Notes: generated by a model not told the origin, from the sequence alone. Positions 44,745-53,983 are shown, counted from the first letter of the stretch. The stretch is 64,000 nucleotides of DNA from an uncultured Candidatus Peribacteria bacterium (GCA_964506115.1 CAZDKI010000004.1:13280-77279), one strand, 5' to 3'. Made by a program: numbers and translations.

Positions 44745-46079
44745 ATGTCTGACCCATCAAAAATTGAAGGAGTTCCTAATGAAACTCCAAAAGAATTGTC
44801 TTTAGCTTCCGGTGCTAGAGCTGAGGTGAAGGCTGTACTAAGAGAACCTGTTACGTCTTTTGAAATCGCAGAACTATCTTCAATGTCTCCTCAATTAAGA
44901 AGGATCCTAGGTCGATCTGTATACGCGGTAAAATCAGTAGCTGAGGAGGGTGAAAAAGAAGTAGGTTTAGAGTATCAAACCTCTATGATGATTCATGGAA
45001 GGGCTGTACCAGGTATGGTGAGAATAATAGGAACTATGTTAGATAAATCTGGTGCTCCTAGGAAAATTATTCTAGGTTTCTATAGTGTCCGAGGTGTTAT
45101 TACAGTACAAGATGCAAACCTCGGCTCAGGAGGAACTACTGATGCTCCTTGGCTAAGTTTGTGTTTTGAACCCAATGCACGTGTAAAAGCAACTACTAAT
45201 ACTTTAGGCACTGCTCTGCTTGAAGGAATGACCAGTGTGCTGCCATTTAAAGAGTTTACTGATGCTGATGATGTTGGTCCTGAGCTTAATTTTTTAGGTA
45301 ACGAGCTTTTGAATTCTAGCTCAGCTTTTGAGAATGATACTGGAGGGACTGAGGCTAGTGAAGATCCAGAATATATTCCGGTGGCCGGTCTATCTGGCGA
45401 TGCAATGATTCCATTAAATGATGGTCTTTATGATTGTAGAATCCATGTGGATTTTGAGTCATTTAATGCTCAAGATAGAAAAGCACGAGTATGTACTATC
45501 GGTGTGAGAAGCAGAGATCAATCACATTGGCTTACTATTAGTTATTCTAGTGTTAGAGATGCTGTGGTTGTCGGTGGTTCCGATCTCAGTTCAAAACAAA
45601 TTAAAGATATTGTGGGAGCTGTTGCTGAATTTGCTGGTATCTCTATCGCACGAGCGCGCACCGTACCAGTAAGAAGAATGACTCATTTTGGTACTACCGA
45701 AGCAACTCCTGCTGAGTTAGATGCGATGAAGTTAGGTTTGTCAGTGAGAGCAATCAAAGCCTTGATGACGAAGTATGAGTCATCTTTTCAGGCTAGAGGA
45801 GAAGGGGCGGGTGTTTCTAAGAAAGTTATGACAAAGCGAGGAGAATATACGGTGGTGGTAGCACCTCATCGATACCAATCTATTCAACCTAAAGTAGGTT
45901 CTAGTGGTGTTAATACTACGAGTACAGTTGGAGTTTTATTTCACTTTGCTCCAGTTGCTGATGCAAATAAACTAGCAAGTGTATTTATTCCTACCGATGC
46001 CCTAAGAAGCGGAACCGTACGATTCTCTGGGCGTGTAGTGAATGTTGCTTTGTTTAATGAAATCTTTCTTACGAGCTAA
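44745..46079 (+). CDS. hypothetical protein (island gene 1)
   Basis: 444-aa ORF, no signal peptide or TM, no recognisable motif. Ala/Val/Gly/Arg-rich. Confidence 0.6.
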   Translation: MSDPSKIEGVPNETPKELSLASGARAEVKAVLREPVTSFEIAELSSMSPQLRRILGRSVYAVKSVAEEGEKEVGLEYQTSMMIHGRAVPGMVRIIGTMLDKSGAPRKIILGFYSVRGVITVQDANLGSGGTTDAPWLSLCFEPNARVKATTNTLGTALLEGMTSVLPFKEFTDADDVGPELNFLGNELLNSSSAFENDTGGTEASEDPEYIPVAGLSGDAMIPLNDGLYDCRIHVDFESFNAQDRKARVCTIGVRSRDQSHWLTISYSSVRDAVVVGGSDLSSKQIKDIVGAVAEFAGISIARARTVPVRRMTHFGTTEATPAELDAMKLGLSVRAIKALMTKYESSFQARGEGAGVSKKVMTKRGEYTVVVAPHRYQSIQPKVGSSGVNTTSTVGVLFHFAPVADANKLASVFIPTDALRSGTVRFSGRVVNVALFNEIFLTS

Positions 46080-46099
46080 AATTCGTCAATAATTACTAT

Positions 46100-47062
46100 A
46101 TGGGAATAGATAAAATGCGTGGAAGGCATGTATTAGAGCCAGGGACTATCAAGCTTATTTCATGTGAAGATAGTTTGAGGCAGGTTCTATTTGATATCCA
46201 TTGGCAAATTTATAAAGCGCTTGGTAAAGATCGACAGACTTTGGCCTTCTCTGTGGCTGTAGATGGAATCGTATATGGTGTCACTGCTACCAGAACCCCA
46301 GCTGGTATTACTTGTACGATGATTGCTTTTTTTAACAATGCAAGATCTGGAATTTCTTGGCCTCCCATGCAGTATGTGCTGGAAAGGCCTTATATGCTTA
46401 ATGATATACCTGCAGCATTTAACTTTGCAGACTTTTCTAAAGAAGTCATCAGTGTTCTTGACCCTCATCCTTTATCTGCACCAAGGAGAAGATATGAATC
46501 TGTTTACGGTCCAGATCTTGAAGGCCCTGCGGATTTAGAGGCGGTGTTGGCTGAAGCTAAAAAATTAGCCGCTGATGTTCAGGAAAAAGGTCCTGCTCCA
46601 GCTGAAACTATTGGTGTCGGGACAACTCCTGCTCGGGAGCGTCGGCCTGTATATATTCCTGCTTTGCAACATCCCACAGAATCTGTAGCAGAGGCCAGAA
46701 GGCAGATAAGAGCGCGTATACATACAGCTTTTTCTACTCCAAGTGTTAAGGAAAAAAAAACGGTCATAATTGACGACTATTGGGCTATAAAAGCTATAGA
46801 TCTTCTTTACGAACAGAGGCTGGAGTTTCGGGCAAGAGATCCACGTGTTCCGTTTCGTAGACATAGGTTAGCAACAGGCTGGCATGTGCTTTACGTTACA
46901 GCTACAAATGAGGGCTTGTGGATTTATGCTGGTCCTGAAGGTTTTCAGCATCAAAACAGAATATTTATCCCTGACCAATTACAGACATGTCATGTGAAAA
47001 TTCCACTAAATCCTCCCTGGAAGTTGATTGCAGATATGATAGGTGTAGATTTAAAAAAGTAA
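46100..47062 (+). CDS. hypothetical protein (island gene 2)
   Basis: 320-aa ORF starting 20 nt after gene 1. No recognisable motif. Confidence 0.6.
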   Translation: MGIDKMRGRHVLEPGTIKLISCEDSLRQVLFDIHWQIYKALGKDRQTLAFSVAVDGIVYGVTATRTPAGITCTMIAFFNNARSGISWPPMQYVLERPYMLNDIPAAFNFADFSKEVISVLDPHPLSAPRRRYESVYGPDLEGPADLEAVLAEAKKLAADVQEKGPAPAETIGVGTTPARERRPVYIPALQHPTESVAEARRQIRARIHTAFSTPSVKEKKTVIIDDYWAIKAIDLLYEQRLEFRARDPRVPFRRHRLATGWHVLYVTATNEGLWIYAGPEGFQHQNRIFIPDQLQTCHVKIPLNPPWKLIADMIGVDLKK

Positions 47063-51896: not shown

Positions 51897-53480
51897 ATGT
51901 TGGAGCGACAGGGGCGGTCAGCACACGACACTATTCGAGACTTACCGAGGCCAACTACTGGTAGTAGTCAGCCAGTGCTAGCGGAGCTTGATGCTGCAGA
52001 TGTCACTGAGATTTTATCCCCTTTAACTCGAGCTCCCAACAGATCAGATCCTTCTCAGTCAGTTGTTACAGATGATGATGATCGTATTTTGACAGGGAAA
52101 TTTGCACCTACCAAGAAAGAGTTGAGTGCTACAGTCAGTGTGGATGTAGCTGCACAGCTTGATGCTCATGAGTGGCTTACAAAACTCAATGAAAGACGTT
52201 CGCAATTGGCTGCTTTGATTGATGAAATTCGGCCTGATGTTTCCAATTGGGCTCCTGAATTTGATCCTAATAAATACATTGGTCGATATCCCGCTTTGTC
52301 ACCTGAATTGGTACAGGTAGTGCTAGCCAATGGTGATGTTGTTCTCAACGATGTTGCTTTACGTGAGGCTCTCTGTATCGGTGGTGAGAGGGTGAGTGAT
52401 CGGAACGGGACTGAGGTGACTATCTATACTTTTGATTTCCTGGAGAATAATGCTGGGGTTATTGGTTGGGGGGGGATAGGGATAGTAAAGGATGGCTATG
52501 TACAAAAGGGAAAGAAATTGATTAGAGCTGCTATCAAAGAACCAATTCTTGCAGCTGAAAATGCTTCTAATGATGAAATAATGGCGCAGAACGGTCGTAT
52601 TGTTGGCTATCAGCGCGAAGCTTATAATGCCAGCAATTTATTGCAAGCTGATATTCCAGGGGTGGTCAAATGCTTGACCGTCACTGAACCAAGGTCCAAT
52701 GGCTTACCAATTATTGCCTATGAAAAAGTGGTGAATCGTGATCATAAGGTACAAAATGGTTGTGATTTTGCTGGAGATATCAATATCCCACCCTCACGAA
52801 AGTTAGCTGCGTTAGCTGATGTGATTGATACTGTTGCCAGGTGTCATGCTTATTCAGATGGTTTGGCTCATTGTGATATCAAGCCAGAAAACATTTTTAT
52901 GGGGTCTGATGACAAGCTCAAATTAGGTGATCCTGGCAGTGTCACCTCGGTGGGAGAAACGTTGACATATAGACTTTTAGATAAGCATCCAAACAAGGGT
53001 GAGCTCATTCGTAACTTTGTTGATAGCAATGGCCATATGGCAGATGAGGCTATTGGACTGACCCCCAATTTCGCCAATGTAAAAGACATTGCTAAGGCTT
53101 GTGAGGATGGTCATGATATCCGCATCGCGGATCGAAGAGCATTGGCAGTGACTTTAGTTGATGTTCTCCAATTGGCGCATGTTTTTAGTGGCGGTACTGC
53201 CGAGTGGAGAGATCCAGAAATCTATTATGTATCCGATGTGAAAAAGGCATTGCCAACTGCTGAACGTAATAAGTTTTTATCACTCGCATTACAACAGGTA
53301 ATTGTCCTTATCAAAGAATTGGGTAATATAAACGTGCCCGTAAAAAACTTACGGCCACTTACAGCCATTGCAAGTGATTTAAGAAAGTATGCTGAGCAAT
53401 GTAAGGGACCTGATGAATTAGATAGTGTATATCAAATCTATAGAGATTCTATTCAGTCCAATCTTAACCAAACTTTATGA
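51897..53480 (+). CDS. Hanks-type Ser/Thr protein kinase-like protein (paralog of 47627)
   Basis: GWGGIGIV, AAIKEP, catalytic loop HCDIKPEN, KLGDPGS (DFG-like), LTPNF, and ADRRALAVTLV. Confidence 0.7.
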   Translation: MLERQGRSAHDTIRDLPRPTTGSSQPVLAELDAADVTEILSPLTRAPNRSDPSQSVVTDDDDRILTGKFAPTKKELSATVSVDVAAQLDAHEWLTKLNERRSQLAALIDEIRPDVSNWAPEFDPNKYIGRYPALSPELVQVVLANGDVVLNDVALREALCIGGERVSDRNGTEVTIYTFDFLENNAGVIGWGGIGIVKDGYVQKGKKLIRAAIKEPILAAENASNDEIMAQNGRIVGYQREAYNASNLLQADIPGVVKCLTVTEPRSNGLPIIAYEKVVNRDHKVQNGCDFAGDINIPPSRKLAALADVIDTVARCHAYSDGLAHCDIKPENIFMGSDDKLKLGDPGSVTSVGETLTYRLLDKHPNKGELIRNFVDSNGHMADEAIGLTPNFANVKDIAKACEDGHDIRIADRRALAVTLVDVLQLAHVFSGGTAEWRDPEIYYVSDVKKALPTAERNKFLSLALQQVIVLIKELGNINVPVKNLRPLTAIASDLRKYAEQCKGPDELDSVYQIYRDSIQSNLNQTL

Positions 53481-53983
53481 TGAGATTACTCAATTTGAAT
53501 GAAGGACAAGCTTCTATACACGAATTCCGCGATCGTGCGGCTTATGCTAAAGCTAAACTGACTGGTTTGCGCGAAAAGATTGTACCACCAGGGTATGTGG
53601 ATGCTATCCAGGAACTATTGCAGCCAGATTTTAAGGATGCAGCTTGGACAGCCTTTGTGCGCAGAGCAACTGAAATGGTGGAATCGATGTCATCCAATGC
53701 TGGTTCGTTGAGTATGGTGATGGTCGTGTTACCATGTTCATTTACTCCTCTAATGTGGGAGAAAGGTGATTTAGTAGCTGGAAAACACTTCGGTCTTGTT
53801 CATTATTCGGTGGATCAATGGCAGGCGAGTGAACCGGTCATTGCGGCTATCCCTTCAGTGGTATGGCAAGCAGGAAAGATTGATTTGCCTGCGAACATAG
53901 CTGAAAGATCTGCAGCGTTGACTGCAGGACTGGAGTTGGCAAGAACGAAGCTTAAGGGTTTATTGAATACACAGAATCTGTAA
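53477..53983 (+). CDS. kinase-partner protein (paralog of 49106)
   Basis: ATGA overlap with the kinase stop. Shares VMVVLPCSF and AAIPSVVWQAG blocks with the 49106 protein. Confidence 0.55.
   Translation: MMRLLNLNEGQASIHEFRDRAAYAKAKLTGLREKIVPPGYVDAIQELLQPDFKDAAWTAFVRRATEMVESMSSNAGSLSMVMVVLPCSFTPLMWEKGDLVAGKHFGLVHYSVDQWQASEPVIAAIPSVVWQAGKIDLPANIAERSAALTAGLELARTKLKGLLNTQNL

Follow-up and report, generated by a model that had tools for sequence, protein, structure and literature searches.

The subject of this analysis is the segment 44745-53983 of a stretch of 64 000 nt (hereafter the window; positions without a prefix are counted from its first nucleotide) from an uncultured Candidatus Peribacteria bacterium (GCA_964506115.1, CAZDKI010000004.1:13280-77279). 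An earlier note had described this segment as an island of co-directional ORFans, bracketed by two tRNA genes and organised around kinase-fold genes. The best explanation that we can offer, tentative and held with a little less than even confidence, is that the segment is a vertically inherited, lineage-specific, fast-evolving chromosomal locus with regulatory kinase-partner pairs. The working unit would be a two-gene cassette in which the gene for a kinase-fold protein is followed by that of a co-translated small ORFan partner. Two such cassettes, kin489 with p189 and kin527 with p168, stem from duplication of one whole pair, and p345 with p180 would form a third pair of similar layout. Each small partner would bind its own kinase, either as a specific regulator or as a dedicated substrate, while the N-terminal regions of the kinases would receive the input and the kinases would act in the cytoplasm. 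Duplication, divergence, loss and replacement of cassettes may then retune the module between close relatives. The p320 paralogues and p444, at the variable 5′ end, are genes of fast turnover as well.

Between a tRNA-Met (CAT) gene at 44354-44429 on the minus strand and a tRNA-Thr (TGT) gene at 54058-54132 on the plus strand, the earlier note had placed nine genes on the plus strand and, antisense to them, an EVE gene. These coordinates were borne out, and so was the close spacing of the co-directional genes, which was measured as ranging from a 4-nt overlap (kin527/p168) up to 67 nt; the last 18 nt of p180 are shared with the EVE gene, whose distance to kin527 is 192 nt. The locus is indeed organised around kinase-fold genes, three in number, p345 being probably kinase-like too. 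Both tRNA genes (ARAGORN and Rfam) are conserved landmarks, tRNA-Met upstream and tRNA-Thr downstream, and at the sequence level a CCA end can be read as encoded in each of them. The nameable genes are those that had been named before: Pfam returned NUDIX, EVE and weak Pkinase matches for the locus proteins and nothing else, and scans with NCBIfam, PADLOC and PHROGs yielded nothing specific beyond this. In none of the locus proteins was a 19-residue hydrophobic stretch found at the transmembrane threshold or a signal-peptide-like N-terminus, and all of them are predicted to be soluble. For comparison, six related loci from metagenome contigs were used (L003, L007, L020, L022, L023 and L024).

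Two kinase genes and their small partner genes

The proteins encoded by kin489 (47627-49096, plus strand; subfamily A) and kin527 (51897-53480, plus strand; subfamily B) are divergent Hanks-type Ser/Thr kinases that are probably active. Their scores against the Pfam Pkinase model are both below the 31.7-bit cutoff (kin527: 31.4 bits, 1.7e-07; kin489: 22.4 bits, 9.2e-05), and the assignment draws on the kinase motifs as well. The Gly-rich loop GxGxxG is present in both proteins (GWGGIG in kin527, GSGGMG in kin489). Six positions are invariant in 11 of 11 aligned kinases: the beta3 Lys K214 (AAIK in kin527, VVK in kin489); E241, which from its position would be the alphaC Glu; the His and Asp of the catalytic HxD (His325, Asp327); and D345 and G347 of the DFG-equivalent, whose middle residue is not Phe (DPG in kin527, DIG in kin489). 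The catalytic loop HxDxKxxN is matched in full by kin527 (HCDIKPEN), and in kin489 (HMDFKPGQ) Gln takes the place of Asn. Since both proteins keep the Hanks-type catalytic residues, they most likely phosphorylate proteins in the cytoplasm.

With the family profile of the two kinases, 953 kinase sequences in PDB were found at E < 1e-3. GCN2, PERK and PknA stand at the top, with E-values from 4e-11 to 1e-9 (about 1e-9 for PknA); when kin527 was used as a single sequence, its best PDB matches were Myt1 and GCN2 (4e-6). The kinase core is preceded by an N-terminal region in which no domain was recognised (~135 aa in kin489, ~180 aa in kin527), the first ~80 residues of which are the most variable and have a disordered look. 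The mycobacterial Hanks-type kinases PknA and PknB share with kin489 and kin527 the Gly-rich loop, the beta3 Lys, the HxD loop and DxG. The proteins described here differ from PknA and PknB in (i) Pkinase scores that lie at or below the gathering cutoff, (ii) the lack of a transmembrane, PASTA or FHA/PP2C context, (iii) the uncharacterised N-terminal ~135-180 aa and the co-duplicated small ORFan partner and (iv) the size of the family, which has ~4 members per subfamily in 5.8 billion proteins. A wider scan of contigs for the context of such kinases returned generic kinases from unrelated phyla and nothing else.

Each of the two kinase genes is directly followed by a small gene. The p189 gene (49106-49666, plus strand) begins 9 nt after the kin489 stop codon, whereas the start of p168 (53477-53983, plus strand) overlaps the kin527 stop codon (ATGA). 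Judged from the relatives, the start of p189 is most likely ATG 49106, which gives a protein of 186 aa (the ORF is listed from 49097), and that of p180, discussed below, ATG 50838. The distance from kinase to partner gene is between -4 and 9 nt in every lineage, and orthologues of p168 are found within 9 nt of kinase B in L003, L007 and L020. The two kinases, 25% identical over 425 aa (E between about 1e-17 and 1e-19, according to which one is the query), are paralogues, and so are the two small proteins (27% over 89 aa, E about 6-7e-4); it follows that kinase and partner were duplicated as a unit.

No match to p189 was found in Pfam or PDB, and a PDB search with the profile of the partner family was also negative. 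An AlphaFold2 model of p189, built from a 10-sequence alignment, was unusable, its predicted local distance difference test score (pLDDT) being 41. A shared superfamily of the small ORFans, based on an "FxP" motif, was considered and rejected, as hhalign comparisons of p180 with the partners, of p180 with p320, of the partners with p320 and of p444 with p320 were all negative.

A possible third pair with a putative atypical kinase fold

The p345 gene (49733-50770, plus strand) encodes a protein that we read, from its family profile, as having a kinase fold like that of Bud32/RIO, with an active site that departs from the canonical one, and for that reason as a pseudokinase or an atypical enzyme. 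A profile search for this family among 1.84 billion representative proteins found 68 members at E < 1e-3, 42 of them at E < 1e-10. The motifs H..G..WGE.ILPN, (I)DPE and ARD stand out in an alignment of 45 sequences; the family consensus WGExILPN … DPE corresponds to IGESTLQN … EAE in the protein of the window. The catalytic Asp is replaced by Glu throughout the family, which has no invariant Lys; the lineage of the window has Glu for the DFG-equivalent Asp as well. Thus p345 carries neither the catalytic Asp of HGDLxxxN nor a DFG-equivalent Asp.

When the p345 profile was compared with PDB, almost all matches were to protein kinases (Bud32/TP53RK, the LanKC kinase domain, PknA), with the catalytic loop in register and marginal E-values of 0.008-0.07. 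A comparison by hhalign of the p345 family with the locus kinases aligned the same region (E 1.3e-4, probability 54%). The AlphaFold2 model of p345, from a 7-sequence alignment, was poor (pLDDT 48), and a Foldseek search of PDB with this poor model returned nothing at E < 0.7. Similarity to the small kinases of the Bud32/RIO type (Bud32 of KEOPS, TP53RK) thus consists in a profile that is in register at the alphaE helix, the catalytic loop and the DFG region. The differences are the marginal match, the family-wide Glu for the catalytic Asp and the lack of an invariant Lys, the size of the proteins (340-440 aa, with extra N- and C-terminal regions) and the absence of a KEOPS or t6A context from the p345 loci examined.

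The small ORFan gene 3′ of p345, p180 (50838-51314, plus strand), would code for 158 aa from ATG 50838 (the ORF is listed from 50772). It follows p345 in four lineages (L003, L007, L023 and L024), where its orthologues are 34-50% identical depending on the method, and is absent from L022. Its GC contents at the three codon positions (GC1, GC2 and GC3: 0.52, 0.40 and 0.32) are normal, and a search of PDB with its family profile gave no match.

Around the distant members of the p345 family the chromosomal setting is ordinary (rhamnose and glycosyltransferase genes, MscS) and no neighbour is conserved. A conserved module of p345 plus a small gene outside the clade was therefore rejected. In a marine-sediment contig (L030:569-2773), a p345-like domain occupies residues 88-339 of a 734-aa protein; the gene 3′ of it codes for a polytopic membrane protein that by eye looks GspF/PilC-like.

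Conservation of the locus among relatives

Conservation of the gene order in related genomes was checked and was borne out in the metagenome loci. The order in L003, L007 and L022 is that of the window (holA, divIC, rlmI, tRNA-Met, the locus, tRNA-Thr), and the flanking housekeeping proteins are 92-97% identical to those of the window, with ratios of non-synonymous to synonymous substitution rates (dN/dS) of 0.02-0.07. As the locus stands at the same chromosomal site in these three relatives, between flanks of such similarity, it belongs to the inherited chromosome of this clade and is not a recent insertion. Among L003, L007 and L022 no presence/absence polymorphism of the whole locus was seen; individual cassettes alone vary.

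Most of the locus proteins are, as had been proposed, lineage-restricted ORFans. In a set of 5.8 billion clustered proteins, 4 relatives were found for kin527, 7 for p345 and 10 for a joint profile of the small partners. No paralogue of any of the locus families occurs elsewhere within the window.

Selection and gene turnover

In comparisons of the window with L022, L003 and L007, dN was 0.15-0.23 for the locus genes versus 0.014-0.05 for the flanks. Kinase and partner evolve at similar rates (dN 0.15-0.27, dN/dS < 1), 5-7 times those of the flanking housekeeping genes. The two loci L003 and L007 are a closer pair, between which dS is unsaturated (0.2-0.7). For this pair, dN/dS was 0.05 for rlmI; the values for the genes of the locus were 0.16 (kinase A), 0.17 (partner A), 0.19 (EVE), 0.23 (kinase B), 0.24 (p345), 0.28 (partner B), 0.31 (the 269-aa paralogue of p320) and 0.48 (p180, the fastest-evolving gene of the locus). 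The locus genes are real genes under purifying selection, and they are 3-10 times less constrained than the housekeeping genes. Of the two possibilities that had been raised for these proteins, a separate origin or fast evolution, it is the second that is upheld by dN/dS; the first did not hold (see below).

The cassettes themselves come and go. Cassette A (kin489 and p189) is missing in L023 and L024. In L022 the place of cassette B is taken (L022:11650-13765) by a kinase that is 29-32% identical to kin527 (by BLASTP and by local alignment, respectively) and 28% identical to kin489, together with a partner of 192 aa that is ~27% identical to p189. The genes neighbouring this substitute cassette are 74-76% identical to their counterparts, and the EVE gene and the tRNA-Thr region 74-86%; the second cassette of L022 looks like a replacement or a deeply diverged allele. 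In L020, p345 and p180 are absent and different genes are found instead.

L007 and L020 have an additional, degenerate kinase of 409 aa, a paralogue whose gene lies between EVE and kinase B (L007:8725-9954 and L020:2373-3602) and is not accompanied by a small partner gene. With no Gly-rich loop and with HQDF(M/R)DEQ instead of HxDxKxxN, the protein is probably a pseudokinase.

Remaining genes of the locus

The leading position of the locus is filled by a different gene in every lineage. In the window it is p444 (44745-46079, plus strand), a singleton ORFan whose 90%-identity cluster has 1 member. Searches of Pfam, NCBIfam, PADLOC, PHROGs and PDB gave no match to p444, and no homologue was found in the related loci or in phage genomes; the protein has no internal repeat and no similarity to those at the equivalent position in the relatives. 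The GC content of its codon positions (GC1 0.53, GC3 0.24) is typical of coding sequence here. The next gene, p320 (46100-47062, plus strand), belongs to a lineage-specific family of tandem paralogues (320, 330, 269 and 247 aa) in which N- and C-terminal blocks are conserved and the linker between them is variable. Its orthologues in L023 and L024 are ~39% identical over the full length by BLASTP (43% over a shorter local alignment), with dN/dS of about 0.3; no Pfam or PDB match was found, profile search included. Both p444 and p320 had been described as devoid of recognisable motifs, signal peptides and transmembrane segments, in agreement with the lack of Pfam matches and the negative hydrophobicity scan.

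The Nudix hydrolase (166 aa; 47078-47578, plus strand) matches Pfam NUDIX with 56.5 bits (cutoff 21.1; 3.9e-15), and REIAEEVGL forms the core of its Nudix box (REUxEExGU). No substrate class could be assigned, every NCBIfam equivalog score being under its cutoff. The protein is 91-96% identical in L022, L023 and L024, with dN/dS of 0.015-0.04, against 54-75% for p345 in the same loci, and L003 and L007 lack it at this position. It may best be regarded as a conserved bystander that behaves like a housekeeping gene.

The standalone EVE (PUA-like) protein (135 aa; 51297-51704, minus strand) matches PF01878 with 169.8 bits (4.6e-50) over residues 2-131, which cover positions 1-144 of the 145 of the model. 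No other landmark within the locus is as constant: the protein is present in 6 of 6 related loci, with 62-85% identity, but it too evolves faster than the housekeeping flanks. Like other standalone EVE proteins it consists of a full-length EVE domain. Such proteins are commonly located in housekeeping neighbourhoods, and the contexts taken from a published survey are ZapAB-ssrS in beta- and gamma-proteobacteria, factors of translation and respiration, and restriction systems; the survey mentions no association with Ser/Thr kinases or Nudix (PMC7641849). In the locus, the EVE gene is antisense between kinase cassettes.

No recognisable Shine-Dalgarno motif was seen before any of the ten genes of the locus, the upstream sequences being A/T-rich, and a scan for promoters and terminators gave counts that were not above the shuffled expectation.

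Composition, borders and repeats

The GC content of third codon positions (GC3) is the measure that best reports foreign origin. A deviation in nucleotide composition could not be sustained once it was computed: GC3 is 0.336 in the locus versus 0.322 elsewhere in the window (p = 0.97), and the tetranucleotide distance of 44745-53983 is 0.108, for a window mean of 0.0995 (sd 0.0099), with 9 of 55 equal-sized windows more deviant. The bias in amino-acid composition that had been noted by eye is marginal. An excess of A+R+V+G+P stood (0.333 in the locus versus 0.302 elsewhere, Mann-Whitney p = 0.04), whereas the deficit of K+I+N did not (0.148 versus 0.165, p = 0.14), and several unannotated ORFs of the window outside the locus are more extreme in this respect than the locus genes. 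The organism from which the window comes is represented by metagenome assemblies alone; its GC content is ~41% and it encodes an SLH-CAP surface protein.

Repeats are found at both borders, as had been reported. On the tRNA-Met side they form a composite element (44104-44606) of which two copies, 377-384 nt apart, lie one on each side of the tRNA gene. Each copy consists of a D1 repeat of the GTTGAAAGTTGAAAGTT type (44104-44142 and 44481-44519) and a 51-nt D3 repeat (44172-44222 and 44556-44606). A segment of ~155 nt that carries tRNA-Met (44340-44500 in the window) has one orientation in the window and L022 and the opposite one in L003 and L007; the gene itself is at L003:3881-3956 and L007:2763-2838, and at the same place also in L022. 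On the tRNA-Thr side, the 55-nt repeat D4 occurs at 54128-54182 and 57523-57577 (71% identical), its first copy starting in the last bases of tRNA-Thr. No att-like direct repeats bound 44745-53983: the repeats either flank tRNA-Met or point downstream from tRNA-Thr.

It is downstream of tRNA-Thr that the lineages part. The window resembles L003 and L007 up to the very 3′ end of this gene and no further, and the next ~3.3 kb differ between lineages (the stretches compared were 54133-57577 of the window, L003:12264-13940 and L007:12241-15576). The window and L022 have here a 23S-rRNA-IVP gene, an OmdA/DUF1905 gene and a gene for a 314-aa protein, and in the window the stretch is bounded by the D4 repeats; L003 has a large serine recombinase of 558 aa and L007 has other genes. 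It seems that a real integration-type hotspot exists 3′ of tRNA-Thr, outside 44745-53983.

Alternative explanations

The segment had been taken for an island, and a genomic island acquired by horizontal transfer, or a mobile element in decay, between two tRNA genes would account for the tRNA genes at both ends and the repeats that adjoin tRNA-Met, in which it resembles tRNA-linked genomic islands, as well as for the richness in ORFans and the inversion of the tRNA-Met segment in some lineages. We consider this highly improbable, and indeed contradicted by the data. The observation that no integrase, transposase, phage family or defence-specific family is present in the locus was confirmed with Pfam, NCBIfam, PADLOC and PHROGs, and signs of a phage or mobile ancestry were sought without success (with PHROGs, by tblastn searches of phage genomes with p444 and in two scans of viral contigs), with no phage or plasmid relatives found. 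In further contrast to tRNA-linked islands, neither GC3 nor tetranucleotide usage departs from that of the window, the segment has no direct repeats at its ends, and locus and tRNA genes occupy the same position in all three relatives that span the site, with flanking housekeeping proteins as similar as reported above; as the window ceases to resemble L003 and L007 where tRNA-Thr ends, the variable site lies outside the claimed island. A different proposal, which we hold to be improbable though less so, is that the kinases are secreted, eukaryote-like effectors of a host- or prey-associated bacterium and the small partners their dedicated chaperones. The best PDB matches of the kinases are eukaryotic (Myt1, GCN2, PERK) and the profile also matches the Legionella effector LegK4; the first ~80 residues are variable and disordered-looking, the proteins are lineage-restricted and fast-evolving with small partner genes next to them, and they have no transmembrane segment, Sec signal or recognised sensor domain. 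Yet in the profile search the scores of the eukaryotic kinases are equalled by that of bacterial PknA, neither partner is strongly acidic (pI 5.6 and 6.8), no secretion-system gene was seen in the 64-kb window and no host association is visible.

The more serious competitor, unlikely as we judge it, is a conflict module, in which a Hanks-type kinase would be a toxin or abortive-infection effector checked by its cognate partner, or else a phage-sensing defence kinase; the cassettes would diversify at a tRNA-bracketed hotspot and EVE may read modified nucleic acid. A conflict role of the kinase-partner pairs is in keeping with tightly coupled two-gene cassettes that were duplicated as pairs, with their gain, loss and replacement between relatives whose housekeeping proteins are 92-97% identical, with dN/dS 3-10 times that of housekeeping genes and with a genuine variable site just 3′ of tRNA-Thr, where L003 has a serine recombinase. 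Stk2 and PD-T4-6 are anti-phage kinases encoded by single genes, so that kinase defences of this kind are recognised systems, and the kinases of the locus match the PD-T4-6 and mad6 models weakly. The earlier note had reasoned that a kinase, a Nudix protein and a modified-base reader are typical parts of conflict systems; no positive test stands behind this, the PADLOC matches being generic, the Nudix gene not constant and standalone EVE proteins common in housekeeping contexts. PADLOC-DB v2, searched on the locus and its flanks with the models only (the full system logic of DefenseFinder/PADLOC was not run), gave no system-specific marker and no complete system. The matches obtained were to the kinase core (PD-T4-6 and mad6, 13-33 bits), Nudix (PDC-S07), a lone HerA and a Cas4-like PD-(D/E)XK nuclease, with no system-specific protein in locus or flanks. 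The similarity to PD-T4-6 is generic (at most 31 bits) and confined to the catalytic core, and the locus differs further from Stk2 and PD-T4-6 in having kinase-partner pairs instead of single genes and in the absence of evidence for mobility or a defence island. The kinase toxin-antitoxin systems HipBA and HipBST likewise combine a kinase with a small protein in tightly coupled, cognate pairs that diverge together, but the kinases here are Hanks-type and no HipA-like family, helix-turn-helix (HTH) antitoxin, nuclease or other effector domain was found with Pfam and NCBIfam; the partner, in which no HTH is detectable, lies 3′ of the kinase, a position that most type II antitoxins do not have. 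Selection is purifying on average, inheritance is vertical and composition native, relatives are found neither on viral contigs nor in phage genomes, and an association of EVE with Ser/Thr kinases or Nudix is not mentioned in the survey of EVE contexts (PMC7641849). The more specific proposal that the cassettes are an undescribed family of toxin-antidote or abortive-infection systems, with the kinase as effector and the partner as neutraliser or sensor, diversifying at a fixed hotspot and possibly with EVE as a reader of modified bases, appears to us more doubtful still. A lineage-specific signalling or interaction module, which the earlier note had put forward as the main alternative, fits better than a conflict system.

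Several points weigh against our own reading of the locus as a set of regulatory kinase-partner pairs. We infer the link between kinase and partner, and the AlphaFold2 models of both p345 and p189 (pLDDT 48 and 41) were unusable. Hanks-type kinase signalling in bacteria usually comes with an FHA domain, a PP2C phosphatase, a PASTA domain or a transmembrane sensor, and none of these was detected in the locus proteins by Pfam, NCBIfam or the hydrophobicity scan. Given that kin489 has Gln at the usual Asn of the catalytic loop and that the p345 family is without the invariant Lys, kinase activity is itself presumptive. The distant homologues of p345 have no conserved small gene on their 3′ side, so the pairing of p345 with p180 may be merely positional. 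Finally, rapid gain, loss and replacement of cassettes along with a raised dN/dS are seen more typically in conflict genes than in core regulators.

Other features of the window

The D1 repeats beside tRNA-Met are part of a dispersed intergenic family, based on GTTGAAAGTTGAAAGTT or its reverse complement AACTTTCAACTTTC, that is found at gene boundaries across the window (12220-12253, 17701-17734, 37510-37548 and 40176-40209, in addition to the two copies given above). Further families of short repeats, D5 and D7, are rich in CTCTGCTCTTTGA. HIP1 sites (GCGATCGC) were looked for in the 64 kb and none was found. A tblastn search of plasmids with UmuC gave matches of ~43% identity in unrelated taxa.

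Upstream of the locus, in 35438-37519 and 40215-41282, are the genes for the lone HerA-like ATPase (PADLOC HerA, 1.5e-33), for a protein of 148 aa directly 3′ of it that matches the same PDC-S07 (Nudix-like) model as the Nudix protein of the locus and, 3 kb further, for the Cas4-like PD-(D/E)XK nuclease, which is 97% conserved in L022. Between rlmI and tRNA-Met, a very basic ORF of ~66 aa can be read from the DNA at 43919-44119; gene calls of 60-74 aa exist at this position in the relatives, and the DNA is 80% identical to that of L022. The ORF of MurA (32754-34301; 515 aa, TTG start) matches MurA models from residue 84 onward, which means either that the protein has an N-terminal extension of ~83 aa or that the true start is further downstream.

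Implications

The locus is an uncharacterised variant of bacterial Ser/Thr-kinase modules that stands amid ORFan families in an undersampled lineage, and with the present result a false call of a genomic or defence island is removed. The analysis defines several protein families, namely the small kinase partners, the p320 family, p180 and at least 68 clusters of Bud32-like Glu-for-Asp proteins. Curated Pfam or NCBIfam models and solved structures are lacking for all of them, and the one existing name is that of Bud32, given to a single member of the p345 family by automated JGI annotation. The Glu-for-Asp family of p345 is a candidate for a new class of pseudokinase or atypical enzyme. If the pairing of kinases and partners is functional, the locus would provide a compact case of Ser/Thr kinases that co-evolve with private partner proteins, and of a phospho-signalling or conflict module that diversifies by duplication and replacement of whole cassettes at one site. 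Its interest would rise substantially if the kinase-partner pairs prove to be toxin-antidote or defence cassettes.

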